Source: an uncultured Candidatus Saccharibacteria bacterium
GTDB taxonomy: Bacteria; Patescibacteriota; Saccharimonadia; Saccharimonadales; CAZVRA01
NCBI GenBank assembly: GCA_964630055.1
Contig: CAZVRA010000001.1
Coordinates: 174,483-238,482, forward strand
Direction: 5' to 3'
DNA: 64,000 bases
The notes beneath the pieces are model-generated. The model was not told the DNA's origin. It made no database searches and saw only the letters and a program-made list of their open reading frames with translations. Made by a program: the position numbers and the translations under genes. Positions 363 to 49,689 of this stretch are shown here, one piece after another (the stretch's first letter is position 1; every line of letters starts with the position of its first letter).

Positions 363-381
363 GCAACCAGTGGCCGGTAGT

Positions 382-1227: not shown

Positions 1228-1347
1228 ATAATTATAGCATAATTTAGTATATTATACAATATTTAAATTTATCTAGATCTACTATAAACTAATAGCGCAG
1301 CGCTATAATGGACAGTATAATCTAAATTTAGTGGTTAATATAAAATT

Positions 1348-1839: not shown

Positions 1840-1843
1840 AAAA

Positions 1844-6094: not shown

Positions 6095-6099
6095 GGTTG

Positions 6100-7104: not shown

Positions 7105-7215
7105 CTACCCGACCTCCGTACCATTAACTTTAATACTTGTTTCTGTGGACTTGATATTTTCGCTATTATAGCATATCATTGTACTATATACAACCCCTGA
7201 CAGAGAAGGAAAACT

Positions 7216-8433: not shown

Positions 8434-8472
8434 ATAGACTTAAGTGGGTGAGCTAGTTTATAATAATATCCA

Positions 8473-10167: not shown

Positions 10168-10248
10168 TGATAGTAGGCGGGATATCCCACAAATTATGCT
10201 CTAAAACCTTTCAAGCCATAAGAGTAAACCAATACCACAGTATAAAAT

Positions 10249-12262: not shown

Positions 12263-12301
12263 CTTTGCTATGTTTAACTTTTAAGTTAAGCTAATAATAA
12301 C

Positions 12302-28358: not shown

Positions 28359-28433
28359 GGCCTCATCGTCTAACGGTTAGGACACCAGGTTTTCATCCTG
28401 GCAATCGGGGTTCGATTCCCCGTGAGGTCACCA
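28359..28433 (+). tRNA. tRNA-Glu (anticodon TTC), CCA encoded
   Basis: Cloverleaf folded by hand. Acceptor stem 7 bp with one G-T pair, D-stem 4 bp, anticodon stem CCAGG/CCTGG, loop TTTTCAT, T-arm CGGGGTTCGATTCCCCG, discriminator A then CCA. Confidence 0.85.
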
Positions 28434-30358: not shown

Positions 30359-31099
30359 TTGTTTTACTGTTCTCTCTTTATATACTACGTAGAGAGTATG
30401 AGTGGAAGAAGACTAAATAAGAAACAAACTGACCTACTCGCTATTGTGTGTAAGTTTAGATATGTCACGACAGATAATGTAGCCAAACAAAAAAGTATAA
30501 CTAGTAATGCAGCTTACAGTGCCTTAGAGATTCTACATAGTAATGGTTATCTGGGTAAAATTCATAAAAAGAGCTATCGGTTACAGAACAAATCAGCTCG
30601 TTATTATTTGGATCCCAAGGCCATTAAATATATCAAACAGGCTATGCCAGATATTGACCCAGAAAGCCTACAAAACCGCGCAAGGGACAGGCAGAAGTCA
30701 GAAGACTTCATAGACCAGCAGGTGGCCATACACGCGGCCTACATCGCCCTGCAGGGCAAGTATGGGGCTAAGGCAGCTATTATGACCGGTGCCGAGATGC
30801 AGAGCATGGAGGGCATTATTAAGCCGCTGCCAAGCCTATACATAAAACCTGCGGGCAAGAAACATTTCTTTGTCGAGCTGACTGACGGACAGCACCTGTT
30901 TATTGTTAAAAAGCGCATTAGAAAATACATAGATAATCACGAAGCCGGTGAATGGGATTGGGAACACTACCCGGATGTCCATATTGTTCGCAGCTCCAAG
31001 GCCGATAGACACAAGTTAGAGGCCTATGTGGAAGAAAAAATGGACGATGCTTACCTGGATAATGATGATTTTTCTTTTAAGATGTTAGATGAGTTGTAG
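30359..31099 (+). CDS. Replication-relaxation-family-like winged-helix protein (hypothetical)
   Basis: KKQTDLLAIVCKFRYVTTDNV and AAYSALEILHSNGYLGKIHKKSYRLQNKSARYYL fit the pattern of the replication-relaxation family found on plasmids and ICEs. The similarity is weak. Confidence 0.35.
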   Translation: MFYCSLFIYYVESMSGRRLNKKQTDLLAIVCKFRYVTTDNVAKQKSITSNAAYSALEILHSNGYLGKIHKKSYRLQNKSARYYLDPKAIKYIKQAMPDIDPESLQNRARDRQKSEDFIDQQVAIHAAYIALQGKYGAKAAIMTGAEMQSMEGIIKPLPSLYIKPAGKKHFFVELTDGQHLFIVKKRIRKYIDNHEAGEWDWEHYPDVHIVRSSKADRHKLEAYVEEKMDDAYLDNDDFSFKMLDEL

Positions 31100-31867: not shown

Positions 31868-32365
31868 ATGGGCGTTAGATATTCGTTTGACGACTTCTCT
31901 ACAAAAGGACACGGCGTTATTGAGTACGCCGATCCGCATTATTACGAAGACGGCCAGAAACCTAAGCGCCGCACTAAATCCAAATCAAAGTTCGCTACTC
32001 GCTGGCCCGGTCCAGCACCGATGAAGTTTAAGGCTTCAAAGAGTAAGGCCGAATCAAAATTATTAGCACAGGCAGAGGCGCAGAAAATCTTTAAGCGGCG
32101 TTATCCAGGCCAGAAGCCGAAAAAGGGTCAGATTAAAGAAATTATGCGCGAACTGCAAGCGAAACCTCAAAAGCAAAAGGTCAAAAAGACCAAAACAGGT
32201 AGCATAACCAGTGTCAAAGTGAAAAAGCCCAACCCTAACCAGAAGATTGATGAGCTGACACTAGCAGTCTTTAAGCGGCGTTACCCTGGACAACAACCCC
32301 AAGCTGGACAGATCCAAGAAATCAAACAAGAGGTTATTAACGCAAGAAACAAATTGGGCGTATAA
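31868..32365 (+). CDS. Lys-rich basic protein with an internal duplicated motif (probably nucleic-acid binding)
   Basis: Two copies of (I/V)FKRRYPGQ-P--GQI-EI. A high K/R/Q content. Confidence 0.35.
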   Translation: MGVRYSFDDFSTKGHGVIEYADPHYYEDGQKPKRRTKSKSKFATRWPGPAPMKFKASKSKAESKLLAQAEAQKIFKRRYPGQKPKKGQIKEIMRELQAKPQKQKVKKTKTGSITSVKVKKPNPNQKIDELTLAVFKRRYPGQQPQAGQIQEIKQEVINARNKLGV

Positions 32366-32486: not shown

Positions 32487-33407
32487 ATGACAGTAAAGCA
32501 GCGCCTTAATGCTATTCAGAAAGCCTCTGGTTGGTCACAAGAACAGCTAGCATCCAAGCTAGGGGTTAGCTTTGCTACGCTCAACGCCTGGATAAACGAA
32601 CGCTCAGAACCACGCACCAAAGCTGAGCAGAACATAGAGCGTTTATACCTGGATATTGTTGGCGTAGACGCAGTAGATGCCGAGGTGCTTAAGAAGTCTA
32701 AGCAAGCAGCCCTGAAACTAAAAGCCAGTGCCAAAACAATCGCCAAAAATAAAGAACAACTTGACGCACTGACTTTGCACCTGACGTACCACACCAATAC
32801 CATTGAGGGCAGTACCATGACCCTGTCGGACGTTGAAGAGGTACTGTTTGACCACAAGGTACTAAGTAACCGTACCGCCATAGAGCAAGCTGAGGCACGT
32901 AATCACCAAGCGACACTGTATTGGCTACTAGACGAACTAGCCAGCAAGGGCAAAGACTTCGTTATAGATGAGCAACTTATTTTAGGTATCCACCTGCGTC
33001 TTATGAACGGCATTATTGGTACTGCCGGACAATACCGCACGCACTCAGTACGGATCATGGGTGCGAACGTGCCGCTCGTAAACTGGCAAAAAGTACCAGA
33101 ACGAGTAAAAGAGCTGGTAGGACACATAGCTAATCAATCTGACGATACTATTGCTGACATAGCCAAGATTCATGCGGAGTTTGAACAGATTCACCCATTC
33201 GCCGACGGCAACGGCCGTACCGGGCGGCTTATTATGCTAGCACAAGCACTAAAAGCCGGCATACTACCACCACTGGTAGTCAAGGAGCGCAAATATGCTT
33301 ATTACAAATACCTGGAGCTGGCGCAGACCAAACGGGATTTTTCGCCACTGGAGCTATTCGTGGCTGAAAGCATTGAGTTCTCTGGCGAGCTATTCGCTGG
33401 CCCATAG
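32487..33407 (+). CDS. Fic/Doc-family protein with an N-terminal XRE-type HTH
   Basis: Fic motif HPFADGNGRTGR. N-terminal QEQLASKLGVSFATLNAWINERSEP is a helix-turn-helix. Confidence 0.75.
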   Translation: MTVKQRLNAIQKASGWSQEQLASKLGVSFATLNAWINERSEPRTKAEQNIERLYLDIVGVDAVDAEVLKKSKQAALKLKASAKTIAKNKEQLDALTLHLTYHTNTIEGSTMTLSDVEEVLFDHKVLSNRTAIEQAEARNHQATLYWLLDELASKGKDFVIDEQLILGIHLRLMNGIIGTAGQYRTHSVRIMGANVPLVNWQKVPERVKELVGHIANQSDDTIADIAKIHAEFEQIHPFADGNGRTGRLIMLAQALKAGILPPLVVKERKYAYYKYLELAQTKRDFSPLELFVAESIEFSGELFAGP

Positions 33408-33424
33408 GCTGAGTACGCGCATTG

Positions 33425-33461
33425 TTTTCGCGCCATATATGCGCCGCTTTTCGCGCCATAT
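33425..33461. repeat. Two 14-bp direct repeats, ttttcgcgccatat, at 33425-33438 and 33448-33461
   Basis: Read directly from the sequence. The repeats lie in the Fic / defence-operon intergenic region, 23 bp apart start to start. Confidence 0.6.
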
Positions 33462-33696
33462 TTTCAAATCCTGTTTCTGCCAGAAACGGAAGTTGGTTAC
33501 ATGTGCAGTTTTGGACTTATGTTGAATAGTTCTCAGTATATGGACCACGCCCAACCACTAAAGGTGTCTGGGGCTCAATAATATCGTAGCTGGTATTGCG
33601 TATGTAGGTTCATAACATAAGTTTTTTGACCGGTGTTAGATTTCTAATGATTGGTATTAACAGAGGTCAAGAATATACAAAACAGATGTAAAAAAG

Positions 33697-33702
33697 TATA
33701 AT
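33697..33702 (+). promoter_or_regulatory. Candidate -10 box (TATAAT) for the 33723-43211 operon
   Basis: Perfect TATAAT 21 nt upstream of the ATG. A weak -35 (tataca) lies 17 bp upstream. An AGGA RBS lies 8 nt before the ATG. Confidence 0.25.
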
Positions 33703-33722
33703 CTACCTTAGCAGGAACACAT

Positions 33723-36311
33723 ATGTCCATAGTAATAGACGATATCCGCACTGATTTTCGTGAGTTTTGGAATCTTCCTATTGTTAAGGGCGGCGTGAAT
33801 TATAAGAAATCCTACTTTGATGAACTAAACGCATCCTTGCTATTTGAGAGGCTGGCTGAATCATCCACGTCAGATGATCTGGCCATTGTGCTCCCTCAAG
33901 ACTCGACAACACTACCACTGGTAATAATAGAGAGCCTGCTATCGCTATTCAAATACGATTTAATGAGTTCTAGTGGGTCACTAGACAACCTAGAGCCTGA
34001 AGAATCGGTAGGCCTAATGCGTGATCGTACGATGACACCTGGCATTTACAAAGGCACCGAGTATAGGGATGGCAAGAAGTTCTATCGAGTTTGGGATATT
34101 TCTGAAAAGGGTCATGTGCTAATACCTGAGGAGAGAAAATGGAGGATACAGCCGTATAACACAGAAATCTCAGCTAAGCGCAAGCTGACGACTGAAGTAC
34201 GCGGAAAAGTTTTAGAGGAACTGGCAGGAGTGGAAGCTGGGGGTCTGTTTGCATATCAGAATACAAAAGGGCTACTAGTCACATCTAACAAAGGTAAGCT
34301 CAAGGACGACATACAGGAAATATCCTTGGGTGGTGACCCTATAGAATCTATATTCCCAATAGCAGACTATTCAGATGTAGAAAACTATAAACCTTTGCTT
34401 ACAGACAGCCTACGAAGAGACTTTGTGCTTGGCTTGGTCTCTTATGCCGACACAGCGGTTGATATAGCCCTACGAGATCCAAAATATAGGCTCTTAATTA
34501 TAGAAGGTGCAGCTAAGGTACGCTCTGCGTATGGCAGTATAGAGCGTCTCAATGCAGATAATAATCCACGTAAAATAATCTGCGTCCTAAATAGTTCAGA
34601 TGAAGAAGAAATAAGTACACTTTCCCGTATGGGCTTCCGTTGCTGGGTGTGGAAGAGAGATGACTTCAAGCGCATGCACATTGACGATACGCTCGATAGT
34701 GAATTGTCCGGTAACAATTTTGAACTACACGACTCAATCATTAGCGCATTGTCTGAATCCAATTCCGTTACTCACACAATTGATGGTAGCGAAGAACTTG
34801 ATGGGCTATTCACCGTGCTATTCCAGAGCATACGTAAAATTGCTAAAGCCACGCCCGTGAATGAAGACGCCGGTATTATCATCCGAAGGCTATACGCATA
34901 CTTAAAATTCTTTATGCAGCTACCTGTGACCGTAAAGGAGTATGAGCAGTATTTGTTTCTTAACCAGCGCACATTACTTACTGATCAAATTGATGAACTC
35001 GCAGCCAGGATGCAAGCTGGGTACGGTGTTATATTCCCGCGCGATATACAGCAGGACTGCACAAAAATAATAGAAACAATAAAAAGCATCTACTCTTACC
35101 TTGAGCAGAGTAATCCGAGGAAAAATCAATTAATGCAGCTCCTGGGTGACAAGACGCATAAAAAGACAACGATAGTCTGCTCACGTTCCGAGTTCGCCGA
35201 AATACTACGGGAACAAAAGTCCATATCCCAAAACACTACTATTATCAGTGCTAACGAGATAAAGTGGGTTCCAAGCGACAGGGTCATAGTTTGCGGCCAC
35301 TTTACTAAACTCTTTGTGTCAAAGACTTTTCTAGCACCTTTCAAAAGCTTGGAGTTCCAGCTGTATAAAGATGAAAAACGTGCGTATGAGTATGTGCTTG
35401 CAAGGCACCCAGCCTCCCCACGCAGTAGGATAGACACAAGCTTACGCAAACAATACATACCGGAACAGGATCAAGTAGTCGATCCTAGTGCTGTCACCAA
35501 AGATAACTCCACGGGCGATGATCTCGAGAATCTTATTAAGTCTGTGAATGAGCGTTTTGGCGAGACCACAGATTTTAGCGGCACATTCTCTAGCGGTTAC
35601 AGACCCTCCGCTGATTATGTGGATGCCAGGAGAATCATATTTGATAACGAATCGTTCACATATTTGAACTCCGGTCACCAAGTCAACAGAATAGACCGTA
35701 TTAAGAACGAGATCGAACGTTGTTCTATTGGTGAGCTTGAGACTGGTGATGAGCTAATTTTTACACATAACTCAAGAGATCTTTTCGATGACTTAATGAA
35801 TAGTATGAAGGAAGCTGACACGTATAAGCTACTCGAGCAAGAGTCTTCAGTATGGTGGAGGGCACTCAGGGACTACGCAAGGGACAACAATATGGATGAG
35901 GATAAGCTTGCAGAAAAACTTGAAGATCTTGGCTGTAAACGACATCCCTTTACCATTAAGCAATGGACTAACGGCAAGATGATAAGTCCGACCCATATTT
36001 CCGAAACGCTTACTGCCATAGCATCACTAACTGGGGACAAAAGACTTGAGGGCGACCATGCCTCTATTATTGCCGCCTGTAAGACGCTTTTCGCTCTTCA
36101 TATCCAGACCGGACGACTGCTCATTAGAAGAATAGTTAGCTCAGCCGTGACCACAGAAGAGGACGAGGAAATCGATGAAGAAACCAAAGGTAGAATAGAT
36201 GCTTATGCGAAGCAGGCAATACTTGTGAATGTCGCGTATATATCTGATAACACTGCATCTGTACCTGACAATGCTATTGGACAGCTTTTTACGGCACAGG
36301 GGCAGCTATGA
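33723..36311 (+). CDS. Large protein of unknown function (862 aa), first gene of the defence-like operon (possible DrmE analogue)
   Basis: Long ORF. Its stop overlaps the next gene's ATG (ATGA). No motif recognised. Confidence 0.45.
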   Translation: MSIVIDDIRTDFREFWNLPIVKGGVNYKKSYFDELNASLLFERLAESSTSDDLAIVLPQDSTTLPLVIIESLLSLFKYDLMSSSGSLDNLEPEESVGLMRDRTMTPGIYKGTEYRDGKKFYRVWDISEKGHVLIPEERKWRIQPYNTEISAKRKLTTEVRGKVLEELAGVEAGGLFAYQNTKGLLVTSNKGKLKDDIQEISLGGDPIESIFPIADYSDVENYKPLLTDSLRRDFVLGLVSYADTAVDIALRDPKYRLLIIEGAAKVRSAYGSIERLNADNNPRKIICVLNSSDEEEISTLSRMGFRCWVWKRDDFKRMHIDDTLDSELSGNNFELHDSIISALSESNSVTHTIDGSEELDGLFTVLFQSIRKIAKATPVNEDAGIIIRRLYAYLKFFMQLPVTVKEYEQYLFLNQRTLLTDQIDELAARMQAGYGVIFPRDIQQDCTKIIETIKSIYSYLEQSNPRKNQLMQLLGDKTHKKTTIVCSRSEFAEILREQKSISQNTTIISANEIKWVPSDRVIVCGHFTKLFVSKTFLAPFKSLEFQLYKDEKRAYEYVLARHPASPRSRIDTSLRKQYIPEQDQVVDPSAVTKDNSTGDDLENLIKSVNERFGETTDFSGTFSSGYRPSADYVDARRIIFDNESFTYLNSGHQVNRIDRIKNEIERCSIGELETGDELIFTHNSRDLFDDLMNSMKEADTYKLLEQESSVWWRALRDYARDNNMDEDKLAEKLEDLGCKRHPFTIKQWTNGKMISPTHISETLTAIASLTGDKRLEGDHASIIAACKTLFALHIQTGRLLIRRIVSSAVTTEEDEEIDEETKGRIDAYAKQAILVNVAYISDNTASVPDNAIGQLFTAQGQL

Positions 36312-38029
36312 GACTTATACCGAATTACATAGATGAAAAGAACTCTAGTAACGCCGAGAAAAAACTGTTTAAGCTGTTTTCTAAGACAGACAGGCTGAAT
36401 GACTGGGTATGTCTACATTCATTGGGTGTTAGCCAACATATAAACAAACGAGAAGGTGAAATAGACTTTTTATTGATCGGCCCAGCGGGTATCTTTGCTT
36501 TAGAGGTGAAGGGCGGACGAGTTGAGAGACGCAATGGCATCTGGTACTTCACCGACAGATTTAGCAGGGTTAGCAAAAAGCACGAATCTCCATTCACTCA
36601 AGCAAAAACTGCGCTTTACTCAATCAGATCTGATGTTACAGAGCGATTCGGTAAAACATTATACAGTTCGGTATTCGGATATGGGGCTATGTTTCCAGAT
36701 ATTCAATTTGGAGTAGAGTCCCCCGAGTGGCATGCTGATATGGTTTTTGACCATAATGATATGCAGTCAGATATTGCTGACTATGTAGAACGATTGAGTG
36801 AGTATTGGACGTTACAGCAGCGGTCTAGGAGACAGTTAACTCGCCGAGAGATCAGTGAGGTCGTTAATTATCTACGCGGTGACTTTGAGATCATTAGACC
36901 ACTCTCTGAAACTATAGAGGAAACCGAGGACTCTATTATACGACTCACTGAAGAACAATATACTTGCTTGGACGCAATGGAACTCAACCCAAGAACCATT
37001 TTCTTTGGCGCTGCAGGAACCGGTAAGACACTGTTGGCAGTAGAGAAGGCTAGGCGAAATAAAATCAAAGGAATCCCTACACTATTCCTATGTTTCAATC
37101 GCTTACTAGCGGATTATGTTAATGATTTACTCTCGCGTGAACCTGGTAGCGGAGTGCAAGTATATTCACTGCATAGTTTTCTAAATAAGTTGATTAAACA
37201 GGCCGATCTTGAAGGTGGCTTAAACACTGGCGTATCTAGTCAGAGTGAGTTATATGAACGTATCTATCCCCATCTAGCATTACAAATAAAGGAGTTGCCG
37301 AAGTTTGAAGAACTCATCATAGACGAGGCTCAGGACGTGTTGTCGGAGCAGTACCTAAAGGTTCTGGATCGTCTAGTCGACGGTGGTGTTGATCATGGTA
37401 AGTGGCTTATGTGTATGGATCCAGAAAACCAAGACATATATCAAAAAGCTGACAGTAAGATGCTGGGCGATGTAAAAAGCCTCGCTTCATCATATGTGCT
37501 GACGATAAACTGTAGAAACACCAAACCTATCGCTATTCAGACTGAACTCATCACCGGTATATCAGCCGGTGCTACAACTAGGATCGAAGGAGTACCCGTT
37601 AATTACATATGGTACGAAGACCAGCAAGACCAAGCCAGACAACTTAGCGACAAGATAAATGTCATGCTCAAAGAAGGTGTAGAGCCTGACGATATTACTA
37701 TACTGTCGCACAAAAGTGGAACCCCATCCTTAGCAGGTAGTGGCAGGTTGCGTATCGATGCACCTACTCATCTCATAGATACAAGGAGCGGTTCCATAAA
37801 GATTAACGGGCATATAGGATACTGCACCATATCATCATTCAAAGGATTGGAAAGCAAGGTCATTGTCATTACTGATACGGCTGAGCTAGAAGGAGATGCG
37901 TACAGGTTGCTAAACTATGTGGGCTTCACGAGGGCACGCGCCCTACTTGTCGTGTGCATGAACAAAGAGCTGAAGAAGCAGTACAAAGCAAAAATTGCTA
38001 AACTTACTATAGCCGACGGTAAACTATGA
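36308..38029 (+). CDS. NERD-domain plus UvrD/PcrA-like SF1 helicase
   Basis: N-terminal ...HSLGVSQHINKREGEIDFLLIGPAGIFALEVKGG matches the NERD pattern. Walker A FFGAAGTGKT, Walker B LIIDEAQD. C-terminal ...LNYVGFTRARALLVV is UvrD_C-like. Both junctions with its neighbours are ATGA overlaps. Confidence 0.6.
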   Translation: MRLIPNYIDEKNSSNAEKKLFKLFSKTDRLNDWVCLHSLGVSQHINKREGEIDFLLIGPAGIFALEVKGGRVERRNGIWYFTDRFSRVSKKHESPFTQAKTALYSIRSDVTERFGKTLYSSVFGYGAMFPDIQFGVESPEWHADMVFDHNDMQSDIADYVERLSEYWTLQQRSRRQLTRREISEVVNYLRGDFEIIRPLSETIEETEDSIIRLTEEQYTCLDAMELNPRTIFFGAAGTGKTLLAVEKARRNKIKGIPTLFLCFNRLLADYVNDLLSREPGSGVQVYSLHSFLNKLIKQADLEGGLNTGVSSQSELYERIYPHLALQIKELPKFEELIIDEAQDVLSEQYLKVLDRLVDGGVDHGKWLMCMDPENQDIYQKADSKMLGDVKSLASSYVLTINCRNTKPIAIQTELITGISAGATTRIEGVPVNYIWYEDQQDQARQLSDKINVMLKEGVEPDDITILSHKSGTPSLAGSGRLRIDAPTHLIDTRSGSIKINGHIGYCTISSFKGLESKVIVITDTAELEGDAYRLLNYVGFTRARALLVVCMNKELKKQYKAKIAKLTIADGKL

Positions 38030-41000
38030 GCGATATTAAGACAAAAGATTATATTGAGTTCCGAACCCAAATCCTGGACTTTGTGCGAAGAGATCTTCAG
38101 GGTCCTTATGAAGAATCCGAACTTATAGACGAGTCTCCAGCGTCCAAGTACTCCACGGGGATAATTTTCCCTCAGATTTCTCTAGAAGTGCCAGACGACG
38201 GCTCTCTTGATACGCGCGAACAAGACGACGAGGAAGTCGGTGCCATTGAGCAGGCGTCTTCCTTCTATCCATCGGCAACCGGCCTTAGCTTCGCGGTAAG
38301 TAATGGTGTAAATACGATAAATATAAAGCTTCGCTATGGTAAGTATAGGAAGATCACTGCGAAAGACTACGGTGATGTGGTGGTCAAAGTGTCCGGTTTT
38401 GAAGCAACATATCAAGGAAACCTTACAGTACAGAGCTTCTTTGATTTAGGCGACGGGTACCTTACTTTAAAGCGACCTATGGAAATGCACGACAGGGACA
38501 CACTGCTATCTATGGCCGAGGACAATCAGCAGTTCAAAGATGTTATTTATAGAGCCTTTAAGTTATGTAAATCTGGGTGGATTCGAACTCAGCACGAACA
38601 AGATATAAAACTCAGCCCAGATAGCGATTTAAAAGAACAGATTATTGAGGGCGAAACACTAAAGTTGGTTCTGGCAGTAAAAAATATACCAAAATCACAG
38701 AAGAAAATCTGTACTATCTCTGTAGTCAACACTTCGAAAACAACCAAACCTCAAAGCGACTCAGATAAGGCATACTACCAACTACATCTAGCCTTAACGT
38801 TAGATAACGGCAGACCGTTTGAAGATTTAAACGACAAATCTTTTGAGGAATCATGGTTTGACGATTTCGAGGAGGAGTCTCTTCATCTCTTATACCATAA
38901 GAGGAAACTCTATGGTGTGGGGCATGGTATCTCCGTGGACTGGAAAACCAATACGGAGTCAGATGATGCCGTGGAAGTTTATACCACAACTCTGCCAAGC
39001 TATATTGTCCCGCAAATGGAATTTACCCTTGCGGGTTCTAGCCAGAAACCAGATCTTTCCATTGCGACATATGCATATAAAGAGAGAGGCGAGATTATCG
39101 ATAACCTGCGGCTTCTCACCAGTAGCTACAGTGAGTGGATTGAAGCGATTGAGCAAGAATCTAAAGCTCTGCCAAGCAATTTACAGAATATAGCCGCCAA
39201 GCACGTAGAAAAGTGCAAGGACTCACTGACAAGAATGCTAAATGGTATAGAGATTGTGTCTAAGAATGACGATGTGTTTAGAGCATTTCAGCATGCAAAT
39301 GAAGCGATGTTAATGCAAAGAAGTCATACACGACTTCAAAACACAAAATCATTTGCTGATGAGAATGTATCCATGCCAGAAAGCTATAGAAATGAGAAAG
39401 ATGAATGGCGACCATTTCAGATTGCATTCATCATCATGAATTTGGTCTCCATGTCAGACACCGATTCATCAGAGAGGGACATAGTAGACTTAATTTGGTT
39501 CCCTACGGGTGGCGGAAAGACGGAGGCATATCTCGGGCTAACTGCGTTCACCATATTTTTTAGGCGTATCAAATACAAAGACAGAGCTGGAGGCACCACT
39601 GTTATTATGCGCTATACCCTCCGACTGCTTACGTCACAACAGTTTCAGCGAGCATGCACACTTATATGTGCATGCGAAAATATCAGAAAGTCTACGAGTC
39701 TATACGGAGACGAGCCCATAACTGTTGGGCTTTGGCTAGGTAGCGCATCAACTCCTAATACGCTTGAGGATGCAAAATATCGTGTTGGCGAACTCCACAG
39801 GGGAGGTAGTCAGGCAGAAAATCCGTTCCAAGTTATTGATTGCCCGTGGTGTGGCACCCACATGACGAAGGTTGATAGAAGAGGCATCTTTTGCTACGAA
39901 ATTAAGAGTAGGCCTAAACAATTCTATATGTGGTGTCCCAATGGTAACTGCACCTTTTCGGATAAACAAGGCGGGCTTCCTATAATTGTAGTGGATGATG
40001 ATATCTATAACAGACCGCCAACTCTATTGTTTGGAACCGTAGATAAGTTTGCTATGTTGCCGTGGAAGAAGGAGGCATCCTCTCTATTCGCCCTGAATAA
40101 TGGTAACCAGAATATATCCCCCTCGCTTATTATTCAGGATGAGTTACATCTTATATCTGGGTCTCTGGGTACGGTTGTAGGGCTTTATGAAACAGCTATA
40201 GATATCTTATGTTCCGCCAAGAGCATTAAGCCAAAAATTATAGCTTCAACGGCAACTATTAGAAAGGCACAGGAGCAATGCAAATCACTATATGCAAGGG
40301 ACGTTGCACAGTTTCCATCGCCTGGCATAGATGCCTCTGACTCATTCTTTGCCAGAGAAGCCCCAGTGGACGACAACACGCCGGGACGTTTATACGTCGG
40401 TGTAATGCCATCAGGTAAAACATCTACTACCATGCAGGTACGCCTCATGGCTGACGTTATTCAGGGGGTAGAAATATTAGATACAGATGACGCAGTGAAA
40501 GATACGTACTGGACGCAGGTCGTTTATTGTAACAGCATTAGGGAGTTGGGTTCATCAAAAAGCATAGTCTTTGACGACGTAAAGGAATACTCGAAGTCAC
40601 TGGCCAAGTATTATGGCAAAAAACCAAGATTCTATGGTGACCGTAACGTTCAAGAACTGACATCCAGAATTAGTGCCGAAAATATACCAGAGATACTTAG
40701 GATGCTTGAGAATAGTTATCCAAGTAAAGATGCTGTGGATGTTTTGCTGGCAACGAATATGATATCGGTCGGCGTGGACATAAACCGTTTTGGCATCATG
40801 ACAGTTCTTGGTCAACCCAAAACTACCTCGGAGTACATACAGGCGTCTAGTCGTGTCGGTCGTAAAAACCCGGGGCTAGTACTTACTCTGTATAGTCCAG
40901 TGAAAAGCCGTGACCGATCACACTATGAGCAATTCTTGAGATATCACCAGTCTCTTTATAGATTTGTTGAGCCTACGAGCGTTACCCCATTCTCCGCACC

Positions 41001-41391
41001 CGTGCGTGACAAGGCACTACATGCGGTAGTTATCATACTCATAAGACATTACCTCGGCCTACATGATAGTGAGGACTTAGAGAGTATAGATATAAATTCG
41101 CCGGAAGTCAGACAAGTAGTTGGGCTTATTCTTGATAGAACCAGGATAGTGGATTCTGTGGAGGCAAACAGTACGGATGAAGAGATTAACAAGATTTTGG
41201 CCAGAATAGACGAATTGAAGCGAGAGACTGCCGGTATAACCTATGGAACACAATCGCACGTAAAATCTGCAACGGATAAGCTTCCATTAATGCGACCTGC
41301 GCAAGACAAAAAAGGCCTTGGGGAGTACCCCACACTACAGTCGATGAGAAGTACTGACTCTGAATGCTATGTAACTTTGGATCACTCGTAA
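38026..41391 (+). CDS. Large SF2 DEAH-box helicase with an inserted Zn ribbon (DrmA-like)
   Basis: Motif I FPTGGGKTEAY, motif II IIQDELHLISG, motif III IIASTAT, motif VI QASSRVGRKNPG. The Zn-ribbon insert is CPWCGTH...CPNGNC. 1121 aa. Confidence 0.6.
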   Translation: MSDIKTKDYIEFRTQILDFVRRDLQGPYEESELIDESPASKYSTGIIFPQISLEVPDDGSLDTREQDDEEVGAIEQASSFYPSATGLSFAVSNGVNTINIKLRYGKYRKITAKDYGDVVVKVSGFEATYQGNLTVQSFFDLGDGYLTLKRPMEMHDRDTLLSMAEDNQQFKDVIYRAFKLCKSGWIRTQHEQDIKLSPDSDLKEQIIEGETLKLVLAVKNIPKSQKKICTISVVNTSKTTKPQSDSDKAYYQLHLALTLDNGRPFEDLNDKSFEESWFDDFEEESLHLLYHKRKLYGVGHGISVDWKTNTESDDAVEVYTTTLPSYIVPQMEFTLAGSSQKPDLSIATYAYKERGEIIDNLRLLTSSYSEWIEAIEQESKALPSNLQNIAAKHVEKCKDSLTRMLNGIEIVSKNDDVFRAFQHANEAMLMQRSHTRLQNTKSFADENVSMPESYRNEKDEWRPFQIAFIIMNLVSMSDTDSSERDIVDLIWFPTGGGKTEAYLGLTAFTIFFRRIKYKDRAGGTTVIMRYTLRLLTSQQFQRACTLICACENIRKSTSLYGDEPITVGLWLGSASTPNTLEDAKYRVGELHRGGSQAENPFQVIDCPWCGTHMTKVDRRGIFCYEIKSRPKQFYMWCPNGNCTFSDKQGGLPIIVVDDDIYNRPPTLLFGTVDKFAMLPWKKEASSLFALNNGNQNISPSLIIQDELHLISGSLGTVVGLYETAIDILCSAKSIKPKIIASTATIRKAQEQCKSLYARDVAQFPSPGIDASDSFFAREAPVDDNTPGRLYVGVMPSGKTSTTMQVRLMADVIQGVEILDTDDAVKDTYWTQVVYCNSIRELGSSKSIVFDDVKEYSKSLAKYYGKKPRFYGDRNVQELTSRISAENIPEILRMLENSYPSKDAVDVLLATNMISVGVDINRFGIMTVLGQPKTTSEYIQASSRVGRKNPGLVLTLYSPVKSRDRSHYEQFLRYHQSLYRFVEPTSVTPFSAPVRDKALHAVVIILIRHYLGLHDSEDLESIDINSPEVRQVVGLILDRTRIVDSVEANSTDEEINKILARIDELKRETAGITYGTQSHVKSATDKLPLMRPAQDKKGLGEYPTLQSMRSTDSECYVTLDHS

Positions 41392-43211
41392 TGGCGTACA
41401 GCTCTGACAAAAAACCAACTCTAAGACGTAGTCAAACCATAACCACATTTGGCGTGGGCGCAATAGTAGACTTGCCCGATGCATCTGCGATGGTATGTGG
41501 AATTGAGAAATGGAATACTAAAGGTTGCATACCCCTGCACGATGCTCGGCTAGAAACAAAACTTAATGCCAGCCATTTTTATATGCCTCCTAGCACAGAG
41601 GAGTCGGCAGAGGGTGTTATAGCTGTAAGATTCCCGAGATATTTGAGATGCCGCAAATGTAACTACATTAGAGATATAAATGTATGGCGTGATAGAGCCG
41701 CTGCCGGTAATTTCTACAAAGACTTTGACGTACAACCTTACTGTGACATAGATAAGATACAGCTCATACCTTCCAGGTTTGTTGTTGCCTGTCGTAGGGG
41801 TCATATAGACGATTTTCCTTATGAACAGTGGGTTCATGGTGATGCCTTATGTAACAACCCATCTCTAAAATACATCGAAACAGCTAGCACAGTTGGGCTT
41901 GGCGGTATCCTAATAAAATGTGACTGTGGGAAGAGCCAAAGCATGGCAGCTTCATTTAATAAGGATAAGTTGGCTAACATAGCCTCTTGTAGAGGCGCAA
42001 AACCTTGGGTTATGGAATGGAGTTCGCAGTGTGGGGAGCAGCTGGTTGCGCTACAGCGTGGTGGCACTAACGTACACTTCCCCATACTCCGTAGTTCAAT
42101 ACTCATCCCACCCTACAGTTCTGAGGGGTTGAGGAAGAAGATAGTATCATCAGATTTATGGGGCGTATATGAATCCCAAAGCGGAGGCATAGAGATAGAT
42201 ACTTTGATACCTGCAATTGCCCAGGAAATAGGCGAATCCACTGAAGATGTGCGGACAGAAATTGGTTCTATGCTCAATACAGAAGAACAAGACGATAAGG
42301 CGATACCTGAAGAAGAGTATAGATTTGAAGAGTATGAAGCGTTTACCGGTAATGTGACGATAGACAAACAATACGAAAAAGATTTTCTTATTGAGAAAGT
42401 TCCGACAGAGGGATACAAGATACCACTGATAAAGAACGTGGTTCTTGCTAAGCGTCTGAGGGAGGTCAGGGTGCAGGTTGGGTTTTCGCGCATTAAACCT
42501 CCTACATCTCACGATGAGACGGGGCAAGCTATCCCAGACGAAGAAAAGATTGATGCTGTACCAGTATCACAAAACCGAAGGATTCGTTGGTATCCAGGCT
42601 ATGAGGTTCGTGGGGAAGGTATATTCTTGGAGTTTGATACAAAGGAGTTAAAATCGTGGGCTGCAACAGCCCCAGTGCAGAAACGCCTAAAAGATATGCT
42701 AGACAGGAGCAGCAAGCACCCAGACTCTTTTGGCGTATTAGATACCCTAACTCCAGAGTATCTTGCCCTACACACACTATCTCATTTGCTCATAAAACAA
42801 CTTAGTTTTGAGTGTGGCTACTCGAGTTCTGCACTTAGAGAGCGAATATACGCATCATCGCCACGTAACAGTAGTGTGAAACCTATGTCTGCAATTCTGA
42901 TATACACAGCCGAGGGGGACTCTGACGGTACTCTTGGTGGACTCGTGCGTCAGGGTAAAGCTGATTTATTTAATGACACTTTCAGAAAGGCCATACACCA
43001 AGCCGAATGGTGTGCATCAGATCCATTGTGCATTGAGTCCGATGGTCAGGGTTATCTAGGTATGAACCTTGCAGCATGTCATGCATGCACTATGTTACCC
43101 GAAACCTCATGCGAGATGCTGAACAGATATCTAGACCGAGGTACTATCGTTGGCACCCTAACTTACCCCAATACTGGGCTGTTTTCTGGAATGACACGTG
43201 GCGCAAAGTGA
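41391..43211 (+). CDS. DUF1998-like protein with Cys clusters (DrmB-like); start taken at the TAATG overlap (the ORF track gives 41364)
   Basis: C-terminal WCASDPLC...LAACHACTMLPETSCEM four-Cys cluster as in DUF1998 / MrfB-like domains. A second cluster in the middle, CRKCNY...CDC. Genetically linked to the upstream helicase. Confidence 0.45.
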   Translation: MAYSSDKKPTLRRSQTITTFGVGAIVDLPDASAMVCGIEKWNTKGCIPLHDARLETKLNASHFYMPPSTEESAEGVIAVRFPRYLRCRKCNYIRDINVWRDRAAAGNFYKDFDVQPYCDIDKIQLIPSRFVVACRRGHIDDFPYEQWVHGDALCNNPSLKYIETASTVGLGGILIKCDCGKSQSMAASFNKDKLANIASCRGAKPWVMEWSSQCGEQLVALQRGGTNVHFPILRSSILIPPYSSEGLRKKIVSSDLWGVYESQSGGIEIDTLIPAIAQEIGESTEDVRTEIGSMLNTEEQDDKAIPEEEYRFEEYEAFTGNVTIDKQYEKDFLIEKVPTEGYKIPLIKNVVLAKRLREVRVQVGFSRIKPPTSHDETGQAIPDEEKIDAVPVSQNRRIRWYPGYEVRGEGIFLEFDTKELKSWAATAPVQKRLKDMLDRSSKHPDSFGVLDTLTPEYLALHTLSHLLIKQLSFECGYSSSALRERIYASSPRNSSVKPMSAILIYTAEGDSDGTLGGLVRQGKADLFNDTFRKAIHQAEWCASDPLCIESDGQGYLGMNLAACHACTMLPETSCEMLNRYLDRGTIVGTLTYPNTGLFSGMTRGAK

Positions 43212-44197
43212 GAGAATGATTCTTCCTCGCTAATTGTAGGAACTCGCGGAATCTGCGTCATCAGTGCTTTAGCCATTTCGTTCACTAGCGGCACACATAC
43301 AGAATTGCCGAACTGCCTATAAGCAGGCGTTTTAGTATCTGGGAGGATGAAGGTTTCAGGGAAGCCCATCAACCTGGCGCACTCCCTAGGTGTAAGCATG
43401 CGAGGATTTTTACCCTTCTGCTCTATGAGGTTCTCCCTACCATCCTTACCGTAACGTGACGTGAGTGTACTTGCAATACCGTTGATATCAACAATATGAT
43501 GTCTAAATCCATTGCCTTTTAGTCTATTACGTTCAGAGCGGGCTTTATGCGACTCCCAAAGTCGATCACTAATCGTGTATTGTTCGTCAGGCTTATCTTC
43601 AAGGATATCTTTTAGCCTATGCTTTCTCTGCTTTACCATAGGGAATTTGAAAACAATATCATCACGCATAGCTACCATGAATATTCTTTTTCTTCTGTGG
43701 GGTACCATTAGGGATGCATCAAACACCTGTGAGTTAAACGAATATCCAAGTTTTGTTAGCTCGTCTTTTACTATGGCGAGACTTCTACCCCCGTCATGCC
43801 GTTCGAAGTTGGCTACATTTTCAAGAAATATAACTTTTGGTTTGTGGTACTTAGCTATCCTAACTATCTCGTAGAATAGGTTGCCCTGTTTTTCATCCTG
43901 GAAACCATGTTTTCTTCCAAGTCCTGAGCGTGCCGACACCCCAGCCCTTGAGAATGGCTGACAAGGAAACCCAGCACATAGTATGTCGTGCGAAGGTATC
44001 TCGCTGGCTTTTACCTGCCTTATGTCGCGTGTATCTATTTCATTGCCGTGGTTGCGGCGGTAAGTAGCGACAGCAGAACTATCCACTTCGTTTGTGTACA
44101 CACAGTTAAAACCAGCCTGTTCAAATCCCAGTCTAATACCGCCTATGCCGGCGAATAGATCTATAAAGGTCAGCTTTTGGTCGTCGTCCTGTGTCAT
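43163..44197 (-). CDS. DNA cytosine-5 methyltransferase
   Basis: Motif I FIDLFAGIGG, motif IV GFPCQPFS, motif VI FLENV, motif VIII PHRRKRIF, motif X QFGNSV. Converges on the DUF1998 gene and overlaps it by 49 nt. Confidence 0.85.
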   Translation of the reverse strand: MTQDDDQKLTFIDLFAGIGGIRLGFEQAGFNCVYTNEVDSSAVATYRRNHGNEIDTRDIRQVKASEIPSHDILCAGFPCQPFSRAGVSARSGLGRKHGFQDEKQGNLFYEIVRIAKYHKPKVIFLENVANFERHDGGRSLAIVKDELTKLGYSFNSQVFDASLMVPHRRKRIFMVAMRDDIVFKFPMVKQRKHRLKDILEDKPDEQYTISDRLWESHKARSERNRLKGNGFRHHIVDINGIASTLTSRYGKDGRENLIEQKGKNPRMLTPRECARLMGFPETFILPDTKTPAYRQFGNSVCVPLVNEMAKALMTQIPRVPTISEEESFSHFAPRVIPENSPVLG

Positions 44198-44297
44198 ATG
44201 TGTTTAGGTCTTAAACCATTCTAGCATTAGTAGCGGCTCTCATGGAACATAAGCTCTACCAATTTTTAATAGCCGTAAATAGTTATAAAATTGGGCT

Positions 44298-45068
44298 ATG
44301 AAGCAAGGGCAACGGGCTTGGACGCGTGAAGAACTGATTCTGGTAGTAAACCTATATCTAAAACTACCCTTTGGGAGACTACATAAGCTTAATCCGGAAG
44401 TTGTCGAACTTGCTAGCCTCCTCAACAGAACAACCAATTCAATTGCGCTCAAGTTAGTTAATTTTGCCAGCCTTGACCCCAGTATCAAGGCTCGTGGTTT
44501 CAGCGGTATGAAAAACGCAAGCAAGCTTGATGTCCAGGTATGGCATGAATTCTTCGATAACTGGGAATCCCTTCCTTTCGAAAGCGAAGAACTTCTCGCT
44601 AAACATAGACACACTACTGTTGAGGAGCTGAATCACATCTCGGAGGAAGAATTGCCGAAAGAAGGAATTGATAGAGAACGAATTGTTAAGACTAGGGTCA
44701 ACCAATCACTCTTCAGAAGTTCAATTCTAGCCGCCTACAACAATACATGCTGTATCACCGGTATTAACAAGCCTGAGCTGTTAGTGGCTGGGCATATACG
44801 ACCGTGGGGCATTGATGAAAAAAACAGATTAAATCCGCGAAACGGTTTGGCAATTAACGCACTTCACGACAGGGCATTTGAGTCTGGGCTTCTTACGGTA
44901 ACTCCAGACTATAGAGTACATATATCCTCCGCACTCCTTAAACAGAAAGATGAATTTATTAAAGAATACTTTGGCAGGTACGATAATCAACCAATTATTC
45001 TTCCATCAAGATTCTTACCAGACATCAAGTTCCTTGAATACCATAACAAAGAGAGGTTTATTGCCTAA
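44298..45068 (+). CDS. HNH endonuclease-family protein (HNH_2-like putative restriction endonuclease)
   Basis: CCITGINKPELLVAGHIRPW...NGLAINALHDRAFESGLLTV is the HNH core. Divergent from the C5-MTase. Confidence 0.6.
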   Translation: MKQGQRAWTREELILVVNLYLKLPFGRLHKLNPEVVELASLLNRTTNSIALKLVNFASLDPSIKARGFSGMKNASKLDVQVWHEFFDNWESLPFESEELLAKHRHTTVEELNHISEEELPKEGIDRERIVKTRVNQSLFRSSILAAYNNTCCITGINKPELLVAGHIRPWGIDEKNRLNPRNGLAINALHDRAFESGLLTVTPDYRVHISSALLKQKDEFIKEYFGRYDNQPIILPSRFLPDIKFLEYHNKERFIA

Positions 45069-45148
45069 AGTTTTCCATAAGTTTATACAGAAAAGTCATC
45101 TTATCATCTAGTTCCGGCGAGGTTTGATGAACCAAAAACAAGGGTAGC

Positions 45149-49646: not shown

Positions 49647-49689
49647 ACCAAATTAAGATACCCACCATAGGTGGGTATCTTAATTTGGT
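49647..49689. repeat. Perfect 20-bp inverted repeat (accaaattaagatacccacc / ggtgggtatcttaatttggt) with a 3-nt spacer
   Basis: Read directly from the sequence. Three further hairpins follow (49691-49710, 49715-49728, 49781-49806). Confidence 0.75.

Follow-up and report, generated by a model that had tools for sequence, protein, structure and literature searches.

A class-2-type DISARM operon with a NERD-SF1 nuclease-helicase and without drmC on a Saccharibacteria island

What might serve as the nuclease of a DISARM locus that has no gene for DrmC? In the original definition of DISARM, DrmC (a PLD-domain nuclease) reportedly belonged to the "core triplet". DrmC is the sole predicted nuclease of DISARM and fails to co-purify with DrmAB (PMC9142583); furthermore, it is dispensable for defence, and the nuclease effector of DISARM is unresolved (PMC9142583; 10.1101/2021.12.28.474362; PMC12904381). 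A 2026 review still places DISARM among the systems whose mechanism of restriction is unknown (PMC12904381). We analysed a locus from an uncultured Saccharibacteria bacterium in which the genes for DrmE, DrmA, DrmB, and DrmMII are accompanied by a gene for a NERD-SF1 nuclease-helicase. From the sequences of this locus and its relatives, we propose (with a probability of roughly 0.6) that it would be a functional class-2-type DISARM system with the NERD-SF1 protein as an integral fifth component, not a passenger. We found no description in the literature of a DISARM sub-architecture with a NERD-SF1 helicase and without DrmC.

The cassette and its DISARM proteins

Five genes occupy positions 33723-44197 of the window (the whole 64-kb stretch of DNA that was analysed) and form a cassette of about 10.5 kb. 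These genes, a promoter-like site, and a neighbouring endonuclease gene are:

33674-33702, + strand: promoter-like site TATACA-17-TATAAT, about 20 nt 5' of the drmE start codon
33723-36311, + strand: drmE, 862 aa; modelled SF2-helicase-like fold in which a canonical Walker A motif is missing; C-terminal DrmE domain
36308-38029, + strand: fusion of NERD (PD-(D/E)xK nuclease) and SF1 helicase, 573 aa; candidate nuclease-motor effector
38026-41391, + strand: drmA, YprA-like SF2 helicase of DISARM, 1121 aa
41391-43211, + strand: drmB, DUF1998/MZB zinc-binding partner of DrmA, 606 aa (TAATG start)
43163-44197, - strand: drmMII, C5 cytosine DNA methyltransferase, 344 aa; convergent with drmB
44298-45068: HNH endonuclease (PADLOC HNH models), adjacent to the methylase gene and divergent from it

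Translational coupling joins the four + strand genes into one operon. Both junctions of the NERD-SF1 gene are ATGA overlaps (36308-36311 with drmE and 38026-38029 with drmA), so that it is coupled on both sides, and the junction of drmA and drmB is TAATG (41389-41393), although an alternative ATG for drmB at 41364 would give a protein of 615 aa. The stop codons of drmB (43211) and of the methylase gene (43163) delimit a convergent overlap of 49 nt. Both the coupling and the overlap are as originally predicted. The site upstream of drmE was the top-scoring promoter-like site (10/12) in a scan of 33300-45200, where such sites are not more numerous than expected from shuffling, so it is the position alone that is suggestive.

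Curated HMMs (DrmA, DrmB_fam, DrmE_fam, and PADLOC's DrmMII) match four of the proteins, and the first three matches exceed the curated NCBIfam cutoffs. The 1121-aa protein is DrmA (PADLOC, 2.9e-233; NCBIfam DISARM_DrmAS equivalog, 985.7 bits with the cutoff at 950), with a Walker A motif (GGGKT) at 495 and a cysteine cluster at 606-642. It had been described as a DEAH SF2 helicase; it is an SF2 helicase, but motif II reads DELH (at 705). The 606-aa protein, encoded by a separate gene directly 3' of drmA, is DrmB (PADLOC, 6.2e-74; Pfam MZB/DUF1998, with MZB at 3.3e-09; DrmB_fam, 483 bits with the cutoff at 240). The 862-aa protein, previously an unknown that was suspected to be DrmE, is matched by DrmE_C (2e-13) and across its full length by DrmE_fam (3.1e-95, 320 bits with the cutoff at 80), while it scores 43 bits against the narrow DISARM_DrmE equivalog (NCBIfam; cutoff of 250). 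Its structural model suggests an SF2-like fold that lacks the Walker A motif. The 344-aa protein is a C5 methyltransferase (Pfam DNA_methylase, 3.7e-85) with the motifs FAGIG, PCQ, ENV, and GNSV, and PADLOC's DrmMII model (9.2e-114) outscores the best type II methyltransferase model (8.2e-105). Thus, the searches for DUF1998 and DrmA gave strong matches, and HMMs support all four members of the class-2 gene set named in the original prediction. Standard annotation models already give three of these proteins their DISARM names; what is new here is only the role of the NERD-helicase.

According to two sources that summarise Ofir et al. 2018 (10.1101/2021.12.28.474362; PMC9142583), class 2 DISARM of the Bacillus paralicheniformis type has the order drmE-drmA-drmB-drmC-drmMII. 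Our locus shares with it a split YprA-like SF2 DrmA, a DUF1998 DrmB, a C5 DrmMII, and DrmE, whose gene comes first. In contrast, our locus lacks the PLD nuclease DrmC; it has an additional NERD-SF1 nuclease-helicase gene between drmE and drmA; its methylase gene is convergent and overlaps drmB; and its DrmE fits the broad DrmE_fam rather than the canonical DISARM_DrmE equivalog.

A nuclease-helicase between drmE and drmA

The 573-aa protein is matched by Pfam's NERD (4.9e-10), UvrD_C_2, PhoH, and SLFN-g3 helicase models and by PADLOC's RTasNERD-Hel (4.6e-55) and C3a187 NERD+UvrD (2.9e-21). In an alignment of 44 homologues, the motifs of the PD-(D/E)xK nuclease and of the SF1 motor are invariant: E17, D53, E66, and K68 on the nuclease side, along with G234/A236/G237/G239-K240-T241, D339-E340-x-Q342-D343, N401/R403-N404-T405, and R542. 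The AF2 model has a pLDDT of 87.3, and its top Foldseek matches are SLFN11/14, UvrD, Upf1, and Dna2. This protein is probably the integral nuclease effector of the system.

As expected from the original prediction, there is no PLD gene: the PLD family had no matches in the 19 ORFs scanned, and the HxKx4D motif is absent from all open frames of 100 aa or more across the window. No PLD gene was found in two Pfam-annotated sister loci (L001 and L005). The HKD motif is also absent from 84 neighbouring ORFs of 24 distant NERD-DrmAB loci, for which the absence of PLD rests on a motif regex and a Pfam summary listing 25 of 57 families. DrmC is missing from all of the examined loci that have the NERD-helicase.

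The NERD-SF1 gene had been thought to occupy the expected position of drmC, which proved incorrect, as it lies between drmE and drmA. The canonical order of Ofir 2018 is said to have drmC 3' of drmB. The PLD gene comes after the DUF1998 gene (PMC12458937). Given where the NERD-SF1 gene lies, the replacement of DrmC is a functional hypothesis and not a positional fact.

Several known systems resemble parts of this cassette. ARMADA type II (ArmA-D; PMC12458937) also combines a YprA-like helicase, a nuclease-SF1 (UvrD-like) helicase, and a methyltransferase. However, its ArmD joins a RelE-like RNase to a GajB-like UvrD, while our protein has a nuclease domain of the NERD/PD-(D/E)xK type; its YprA is unsplit and of the Druantia-like branch, while ours is split into DrmA and DrmB; and it includes an SNF2 helicase (BrxHII/RapA) as well as a PglX-like N6 methylase (PMC12458937). 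We ruled out ARMADA type II, as the island genes had no SNF2 or PglX matches and YprA is split. TALON (PMC12458937) likewise associates a YprA-family helicase with a NERD-type PD-(D/E)xK nuclease, but it has an ARMADA-like unsplit YprA, TPR-CSD and TBP genes, and no methylase, and it is largely confined to Chloroflexota; unlike our protein, the NERD protein of TALON has no described fusion to SF1.

Nhi and Nhi-like systems, as summarised in PMC12904381 and PMC10952713, target DNA and also join an N-terminal nuclease to an SF1 helicase in one polypeptide, with NERD among the domains listed for Nhi-like systems. In contrast, the gene here is operonic and co-varies with DrmAB instead of standing alone. 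We rejected membership in Nhi: PADLOC's Nhi model covers the helicase core alone (residues 213-410, 5.1e-7), and the gene is coupled to both of its neighbours. Finally, DISARM-like operons of Pseudomonas include an embedded RmuC/ShdA nuclease (PMC10270631). This variant resembles ours in having an alternative, non-PLD nuclease whose copies in DISARM operons group as a separate clade; it differs in that the nuclease has an RmuC fold, is not fused to a helicase, and is restricted to Pseudomonas, while the association of NERD-SF1 with DISARM spans several phyla.

Recurrence of the cassette and rival readings

By sequence comparison, the NERD-SF1 cassette is a conserved and phylogenetically broad sub-architecture of DISARM and not an isolated oddity. 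The composition had been called atypical; this is correct in that NERD is in and PLD is out, but it is not a one-off. The five-gene cassette, with its order and its convergent methylase gene, is found in other Saccharibacteria MAGs, and the arrangement is identical in a Paraperlucidibaca MAG and in a MAG labelled Verrucomicrobiae. In all of the loci with a full-length DrmE match among those recovered via DrmE (L009-L012), the NERD-helicase gene is directly 3' of drmE. It is followed by drmA, drmB, and a convergent methyltransferase gene in L010-L012, while L009 ends within drmA; in L013, the DrmE match is only a 55-residue fragment. The ATGA overlap of drmE and the NERD-helicase gene recurs in L001 and L005. 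Among the close relatives, identity declines in parallel across the five proteins. Thus, the co-localisation that the original prediction called for was found: all of the related loci that we recovered hold the genes together and in an unchanged order.

Beyond these relatives, we used the NERD-helicase alone as a query and recovered 56 metagenome loci; in 24 of these, DrmA/DrmB adjoin the NERD-helicase (which is 22-42% identical). In cultured bacteria, at least 6 of 12 plasmid matches also adjoin DrmAB (Deinococcus, Rhodococcus, Azospirillum, and Rhizobium). In a neighbour-joining tree built from BLOSUM distances, one clade holds 26 of the 27 DISARM-linked NERD-helicases. The pairwise distances of the NERD-helicase track those of DrmA (r = 0.964, Mantel p <= 5e-4) on par with DrmA and DrmB (r = 0.961), although the mirror-tree correlation is inflated by a bimodal sample of close and distant pairs from 14 taxa.

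A less likely explanation is that the NERD-SF1 gene is an autonomous, Nhi-like single-gene defence that is embedded in the operon and shares its regulation but acts independently, in which case DrmE, DrmA, DrmB, and DrmMII would work without it and without any dedicated nuclease. Operons of DISARM, BREX, and type I RM commonly harbour unrelated defence genes, and 96.7% of these embedded genes are co-oriented with the host system (10.1101/2024.01.29.577857). Also, RTasNERD-Hel, C3a187, and the weakly-matching Nhi model all derive from contexts other than DISARM. A Saccharibacteria MAG (L007) has a 45% identical NERD-helicase that stands alone and nests within the DISARM-linked clade, and more distant (outgroup) clades are not linked to DISARM. 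This implies that the NERD-helicase can persist, and perhaps act, on its own. Conversely, some DISARM loci have no NERD-helicase: a plasmid of L. plantarum carries a class-2 MTase-DrmE-DrmA-DrmB locus with neither the NERD-helicase nor DrmC, so a dedicated nuclease gene is not a strict requirement of DISARM. Nevertheless, sporadic embedding predicts patchy presence and incongruent trees. Instead, the gene's presence, position, and translational coupling are kept in all close relatives and the 24 distant loci; its distances track those of DrmA as tightly as DrmB's do; the DISARM-linked copies are almost monophyletic; and DrmC is consistently missing where it occurs. These observations favour an integral component.

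If the NERD-SF1 protein is integral to DISARM, then one could tentatively go further, at somewhat less than even odds, and view these loci as a third, phylum-spanning class of DISARM, with a DrmE-like protein, NERD-SF1, DrmA, DrmB, usually a C5 methylase, and never DrmC, and with NERD-SF1 as the missing DNA-degrading effector, to be recruited by DrmAB with the SF2-like, Walker-A-less DrmE as the adaptor. In the favoured reading itself, DrmMII would mark self by methylating C5 of cytosine in a short motif of the host's DNA, as expected from its family and from class-2 DISARM (summarised in 10.1101/2021.12.28.474362). The split YprA-like DrmA-DrmB would load on unmethylated DNA, incoming or replicating, at its single-stranded 5' ends; such loading was shown for the class-1 DrmAB of Serratia (PMC9142583). 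DrmE, which is essential in class 2 (10.1101/2021.12.28.474362, citing Ofir 2018), would be a non-catalytic adaptor or sensor, given its model and the loss of the motif. The NERD-SF1 protein would degrade DNA as a PD-(D/E)xK nuclease riding an SF1 translocase, as in Dna2, Nhi, and SLFN11. It would thereby stand in for the dispensable DrmC.

It is improbable that the C5 methyltransferase and the divergent HNH endonuclease are instead a type II restriction-modification pair, with the DISARM genes as mere neighbours. The HNH protein has strong PADLOC matches (8.4e-93 and 2.7e-46), one of them to a model labelled as a type II restriction enzyme, and the DrmMII model is only slightly ahead of the type II methyltransferase models. 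Furthermore, a 45% identical HNH homologue from N. gonorrhoeae lies beside a C5-MTase-like stretch, and a cluster of HNH, NaeI, Vsr, and C5-MTase flanks a NERD-DrmAB locus on pROB02 of R. opacus. However, the methylase gene lies convergent at the 3' end of drmB in L001, L005, L011, and L012 (overlapping drmB in the first two and immediately 3' of it in the others; methylases 59-62% identical), and none of these four loci has the HNH gene. For a Hymenobacter homologue of the HNH protein (55% identical), no methylase is annotated in the 4 kb to either side. In any case, such a pair is compatible with DISARM, as one methylase could protect against both.

The probable mobile island

The DISARM operon is probably cargo of a serine-recombinase island of about 21 kb at a tRNA-Glu gene of the Saccharibacteria chromosome. 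The other features of the island are:

28359-28433, + strand: tRNA-Glu(UUC) (ARAGORN); left boundary and presumed integration site
28393-30126, - strand: large serine recombinase 1 (Pfam Resolvase, Recombinase, Zn_ribbon_recom)
30359-31099, + strand: Replication-relaxation family protein, island backbone (Pfam Replic_Relax, 1.9e-07)
45149-47524, - strand: TraD/VirD4/HerA-like coupling ATPase, island backbone (Pfam TrwB_AAD_bind, DUF87, TraG-D_C)
47632-49080, + strand: large serine recombinase 2, provisional right end (Pfam Resolvase, 4.7e-21; Recombinase; Zn_ribbon_recom)

The first recombinase gene shares its last 41 nt with the 3' half of the tRNA gene. The same junction is present in L009 (a Saccharibacteria MAG), along with homologues of the recombinase (78% identical) and, in the same position, of Replic_Relax (68% identical). 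This bears out the predicted link to a tRNA gene. We found no att repeats for the island and recovered no empty integration site. The coupling ATPase also matches NCBIfam's SXT_TraD (2.6e-16, below the cutoff) and PADLOC's mad8 (4.6e-20). The island is indeed AT-richer than its flanks, as had been noted (GC of 0.445 versus 0.48-0.49), but the difference is weak and not diagnostic, as positions 1-14000 of the window are lower still (0.425).

The cassette is always found with serine recombinases, and some members of the YprA family, such as MrfA, are repair helicases (PMC12458937). A module for DNA repair or for maintenance of the mobile element (an MrfAB-like helicase with a nuclease-helicase) and not for anti-phage defence is nonetheless very unlikely: DrmA scores above the cutoff of the DISARM equivalog, the cassette includes DrmE and a cognate C5 methylase, and related loci are flanked by defence genes (AIPR/MzaE, restriction endonucleases, Vsr, and GmrSD).

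As a DISARM sub-architecture without DrmC, the locus offers a concrete and testable candidate effector, namely a nuclease-translocase that has intact catalytic motifs and co-varies with DrmAB, and its compact five-gene cassette could be used as a test system for the effector of DISARM. The modelled SF2-like fold of DrmE without Walker A narrows the hypotheses for its essential role. If these loci do represent a third class, then the NERD-SF1 protein would be the first tractable nuclease for DISARM, and genome-reduced Saccharibacteria episymbionts would acquire such systems on serine-recombinase islands. Here, a Saccharibacteria genome of roughly the 1-Mb class has a large defence system of several genes on a putatively mobilisable island, which bears on how episymbiotic CPR bacteria handle phages.

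Cassette structure and the putative NERD nuclease-helicase

The original prediction placed a class 2 DISARM operon in this DNA, and that reading was correct. Its five open reading frames are present exactly where they had been placed:

drmE: 33723-36311, + strand, 862 aa
NERD-SF1 helicase (the NERD-helicase): 36308-38029, + strand, 573 aa
drmA: 38026-41391, + strand, 1121 aa
drmB: 41364/41391-43211, + strand, 615/606 aa
drmMII: 43163-44197, - strand, 344 aa

As had been proposed, the + strand genes are coupled (their junctions are ATGA, ATGA and TAATG), and the last of them shares 49 nt with the 3' end of the methylase gene. Directly upstream of drmE, TATACA-17-TATAAT (33674-33702) is the best promoter-like site of a region where such sites overall are not above chance. 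The five ORFs are intact, are full-length relative to the profiles, and are conserved as a unit, and we therefore rejected the possibilities of a chimeric assembly and of pseudogenes.

Pfam, PADLOC, and NCBIfam are concordant on the gene identities. The 1121-aa protein is DrmA, as predicted (PADLOC, 2.9e-233; NCBIfam DISARM_DrmAS, 985.7 bits with an equivalog cutoff of 950), but its motif II reads DELH and not DEAH as first described; its Walker A motif is GGGKT. The 606-aa protein with MZB/DUF1998 similarity is indeed DrmB (DrmB_fam, 483 bits with a cutoff of 240). The - strand gene encodes a complete C5 methyltransferase with motifs I, IV, VI, and X, and its top PADLOC model is DrmMII (9.2e-114). 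The 862-aa protein belongs to the DrmE family (DrmE_fam, full-length, 3.1e-95; DrmE_C at residues 635-807), although it falls below the narrow DISARM_DrmE equivalog (43 vs 250 bits).

The 573-aa protein has the expected N-terminal NERD domain followed by an SF1 helicase core. Its top PADLOC models are RTasNERD-Hel (4.6e-55) and C3a187 "NERD+UvrD", and no NCBIfam model matches it. Its enzymatic motifs are intact: a comparison of 44-120 homologues shows no variation in the NERD catalytic residues E17, D53, and E66-x-K68, nor in the SF1 residues G234/A236/G237/G239-K240-T241, D339-E340-x-Q342-D343, N401/R403-N404-T405, and R542. The AF2 model (pLDDT 87.3) resembles proteins of the nuclease-helicase and SF1 kinds (SLFN11/14, UvrD, Upf1, and Dna2); sequence searches of the PDB with the NERD-helicase and DrmE gave nothing significant.

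In DrmE, a conserved "DDLALVxPxDPT" occupies the P-loop position, and "LIIDGASK" is found at the Walker-B-like strand. GK[ST] is missing from 19 of 21 DrmE homologues, and the two exceptions have it away from the P-loop position. Because the P-loop motif is replaced, DrmE is probably SF2-like but non-canonical, without a Walker A motif and possibly inactive. The family is sizeable: among 1.84 billion proteins, the DrmE profile matched 1588 cluster representatives at E <= 1e-3, of which 149 reach E <= 1e-30. Some distant representatives (P0327, P0342, P0344-P0346, P0352, and others) are longer, at ~1100 aa, and have ~250 additional N-terminal residues before the region that aligns to the window's DrmE.

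Conservation of the NERD-containing architecture

The cassette had been described as atypical in composition. The NERD gene is there and, as predicted, a PLD gene is absent (none was found in the scanned ORFs, and the HxKx4D motif occurs in no frame of the whole window), but the cassette is not an isolated oddity. The NERD-helicase homologues P0002 (57% identity) and P0009 (50%) both lie within the same five-gene cassette, with the ATGA overlap of drmE and the NERD gene, a convergent overlapping methylase, and a serine recombinase upstream. Genomes were also scanned with DrmE as the seed, which gave full-length DrmE matches at three loci from Saccharibacteria MAGs and one from a Paraperlucidibaca (Gammaproteobacteria) MAG, and in all four (L009-L012) the NERD-helicase gene is immediately 3' of drmE. 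After it come drmA, drmB, and the convergent methylase in L010-L012; the L009 contig stops within drmA. L013, a Microgenomates contig, contains no more than a 55-residue fragment. Identity to the window's proteins declines in parallel over the loci: 47/35/32% for DrmE, 57/50/48% for the NERD-helicase, and 59/54/52% for DrmA, with 65/56/55% for DrmB and 62/59/62% for the methylase. Circumstantial evidence also suggests that 14 of 20 non-self DrmE homologues share contigs with a NERD-helicase homologue, since the longest contig has exactly the same length for both.

More distant relatives came from a metagenome scan seeded on the NERD-helicase only, through generic helicase motifs. This gave 56 loci with 22-42% identity, and DrmA/DrmB adjoin the NERD-helicase in 24 of them, many of the others being too short to judge. 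The commonest order is NERD-DrmA-DrmB; six loci (L016, L017, L019, L029, L031, and L062) have DrmA-DrmB-NERD. A DrmE-like gene lies upstream of the NERD-helicase in L014, L015, L018, L021, L024, L030, and L033, and L028 has only a weak match to Pfam DrmE_C (6e-3). C5 methylases often adjoin these loci. Plasmids of cultured bacteria (Deinococcus gobiensis, Rhodococcus opacus B4, Azospirillum ramasamyi, and Rhizobium) also carry a NERD-helicase beside DrmAB. The HKD motif was found in none of 84 neighbouring ORFs from these 24 distant loci, and PLD is not among the families listed for the neighbours (25 of 57 Pfam families).

At the drmE position, the distant NERD-DrmA-DrmB loci L021, L035, L038, L042, L046, L050, and L075 have a pair of genes encoding ~300 and ~500 aa. 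Of these, only L021 matches DrmE models (4.8e-9 with the DrmE profile; 3.5e-4 with Pfam DrmE_C), and the others match no family. The pair may be a split or strongly diverged DrmE, or another partner. In one sub-clade of the NERD-type DISARM loci, an AIPR/MzaE-like abortive-infection gene (Pfam AIPR, 2.6e-101) separates the C5 methylase gene from the DrmE-like one:

L014: 2008-4050
L015: 2968-5010
L033: 5314-7368

The main rival explanation is that the NERD-helicase is an embedded defence gene that acts independently of its neighbours. Such genes are documented in DISARM, BREX, and RM operons (10.1101/2024.01.29.577857); furthermore, NERD-helicases have stand-alone relatives, and there are DISARM loci without NERD, such as that on an L. 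plantarum plasmid. Against this rival, the NERD-helicase is conserved in position and coupling, is nearly monophyletic, and co-varies with DrmA. In a neighbour-joining tree, one clade takes in 26 of the 27 DISARM-linked NERD-helicases, and the basal clades are unlinked. Across 14 taxa with bimodal sampling, its pairwise distances correlate with those of DrmA (r = 0.964; Spearman 0.88; Mantel p <= 5e-4) to the same degree as those of DrmA and DrmB do (r = 0.961).

A stand-alone NERD-SF1 helicase (45% identical) is found at 10001-11752 of L007/L008, from a Saccharibacteria MAG, next to glmS-like and unassigned genes. Since the L007 protein nests within the DISARM-linked clade, it may have escaped from the operon.

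The island and its other cargo

As predicted, the cassette lies on a tRNA-linked element; its left start is at a tRNA-Glu gene. The island is also AT-richer than its surroundings, as had been noted (GC 0.445, compared to 0.48-0.49 in the flanks). Besides the cassette, it carries, in order:

28359-28433: tRNA-Glu
gene 1: large serine recombinase, - strand; its 3' end overlaps the tRNA-Glu gene
gene 2: Replic_Relax protein
gene 3: DUF7249 protein
gene 4, 31868-32365: 165-aa ORF without an assigned function
32487-33407: HTH-Fic protein, just upstream of drmE (PADLOC candidate defence families PDC-S04, 5.4e-37, and SoFic, 3.9e-31)
44298-45068: HNH endonuclease, divergent from drmMII (PADLOC HNH PDLC04132, 8.4e-93)
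45149-47524: TraD/VirD4/HerA-like ATPase, which also matches the MADS component mad8 (PADLOC, 4.6e-20)
ending at 49080: second large serine recombinase, the last island gene

The ATPase is either the island's conjugative coupling protein or a defence ATPase. Within the 165-aa ORF, an imperfect 55-nt direct repeat (32088-32142 and 32268-32322; 75% identity, 180-nt spacing) implies that the protein is internally duplicated.

To the left of the island are ppsA and, further left, a histidine kinase gene; to its right is the chromosomal ATP synthase operon. The named top matches of PpsA (76-79% identity) are all from Candidatus Saccharimonadales or Saccharibacteria, which places the host among the Saccharibacteria. 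The AT-richest part of the window is 8000-13000 (GC 0.36-0.39), which is below the GC of the island. It encodes a NUDIX/AdoHcyase-NAD fusion, a 359-aa protein without an assigned function, and, next to a DegT aminotransferase, an LPG_synthase_C-like protein. This stretch may be a cell-envelope cluster acquired in a separate horizontal transfer.

The left end of L009 matches that of the window: a tRNA-Glu gene, here in a different chromosomal context, is overlapped by a recombinase (78% identical), followed by Replic_Relax (68%), DUF7249 (54%), and then drmE directly. This identifies the island backbone as a recurrent mobile element. Because the HTH-Fic gene is missing from this otherwise collinear element, it is likely to be additional cargo of the window's island, a separate defence or toxin gene. 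At 28393-28433, the stop-proximal 41 nt of the recombinase gene (- strand) cover the 3' half of the tRNA-Glu gene, from the anticodon loop onward. The overlap is kept at 6763-6837 of L009, where 137 nt, reaching 60 nt beyond the tRNA, are 84% identical to the window. This arrangement suggests that the element brings its own replacement 3' half of the tRNA.

The right boundary of the island is provisional. Searches for att-type direct or inverted repeats bounding it gave only short, chance-level repeats, and an empty integration site was not recovered, as the closest ppsA-bearing relative has only ppsA in common with the window. About 570 nt past the second serine recombinase is an inverted repeat (ACCAAATTAAGATACCCACC / GGTGGGTATCTTAATTTGGT; 49647-49689) with perfectly matched 20-nt arms and a 3-nt spacer, which could act as a terminator or, close to this boundary, as a site for a recombinase. 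Megablast of the 10.5-kb operon against plasmids gave no match, and matching by identical sequence led to no recorded contig for the NERD-helicase of the window or for P0080. A scan of viral contigs with the DrmE profile found nothing and thus gave no indication of phage-borne copies of the cassette.

A second rival explanation is that the methylase truly belongs with the adjoining HNH endonuclease. In N. gonorrhoeae, HNH homologues accompany a C5-MTase-like stretch, and on R. opacus pROB02, HNH, a NaeI-family REase, Vsr, and a C5 MTase lie beside the NERD-DrmAB locus. However, a Hymenobacter homologue of the HNH protein stands alone, and the rival is weakened because four sister cassettes retain the methylase and none of them has an HNH gene. 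One methylase could also serve both systems, in which case the HNH protein could be a second restriction activity that shares the DISARM methylase.

Proposed mechanism and relation to known systems

The best-supported reading of the cassette is a methylation-based self/non-self system. DrmMII would mark the host DNA, and DrmAB would engage unmodified invader DNA at single-stranded 5' ends, on which class 1 DrmAB has been shown to act (PMC9142583). DrmE would be an adaptor, and the NERD-SF1 protein would degrade DNA processively, taking on the effector role for which DrmC is not convincing in canonical systems. Defence does not require DrmC, and DrmC is not recovered with purified DrmAB (PMC9142583; 10.1101/2021.12.28.474362).

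Of the five genes that make up the content of class 2 DISARM, the locus has four and lacks DrmC. The locus is not ARMADA, because SNF2 and PglX are absent and the YprA helicase is split. Nor is it Nhi, because only the helicase core of the NERD-helicase matches and the gene is not stand-alone. The closest functional parallel to the NERD-SF1 gene is ArmD of ARMADA II, which combines a nuclease with a UvrD-like helicase and is encoded next to a YprA helicase (PMC12458937); another close parallel comes from Pseudomonas, where RmuC/ShdA proteins are embedded in DISARM-like operons (PMC10270631). A survey of YprA helicases mentions "many uncharacterized DISARM-like ... classes" (PMC12458937). A full-text literature search and the supplements of PMC12458937 gave no description of NERD-SF1 in DISARM; Ofir 2018 or Makarova 2011 might mention it.

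Standard tools would already label this locus as DISARM. Four things go beyond that label: the NERD-SF1 gene is the mark of a DISARM sub-architecture that lacks DrmC and is conserved in several phyla; the enzymatic motifs of its product are intact; DrmE probably has an SF2-like fold that lacks Walker A; and, in Saccharibacteria, the cassette is carried by a serine-recombinase island. The finding would be of greater importance if the effector of DISARM turns out to be the NERD-helicase.
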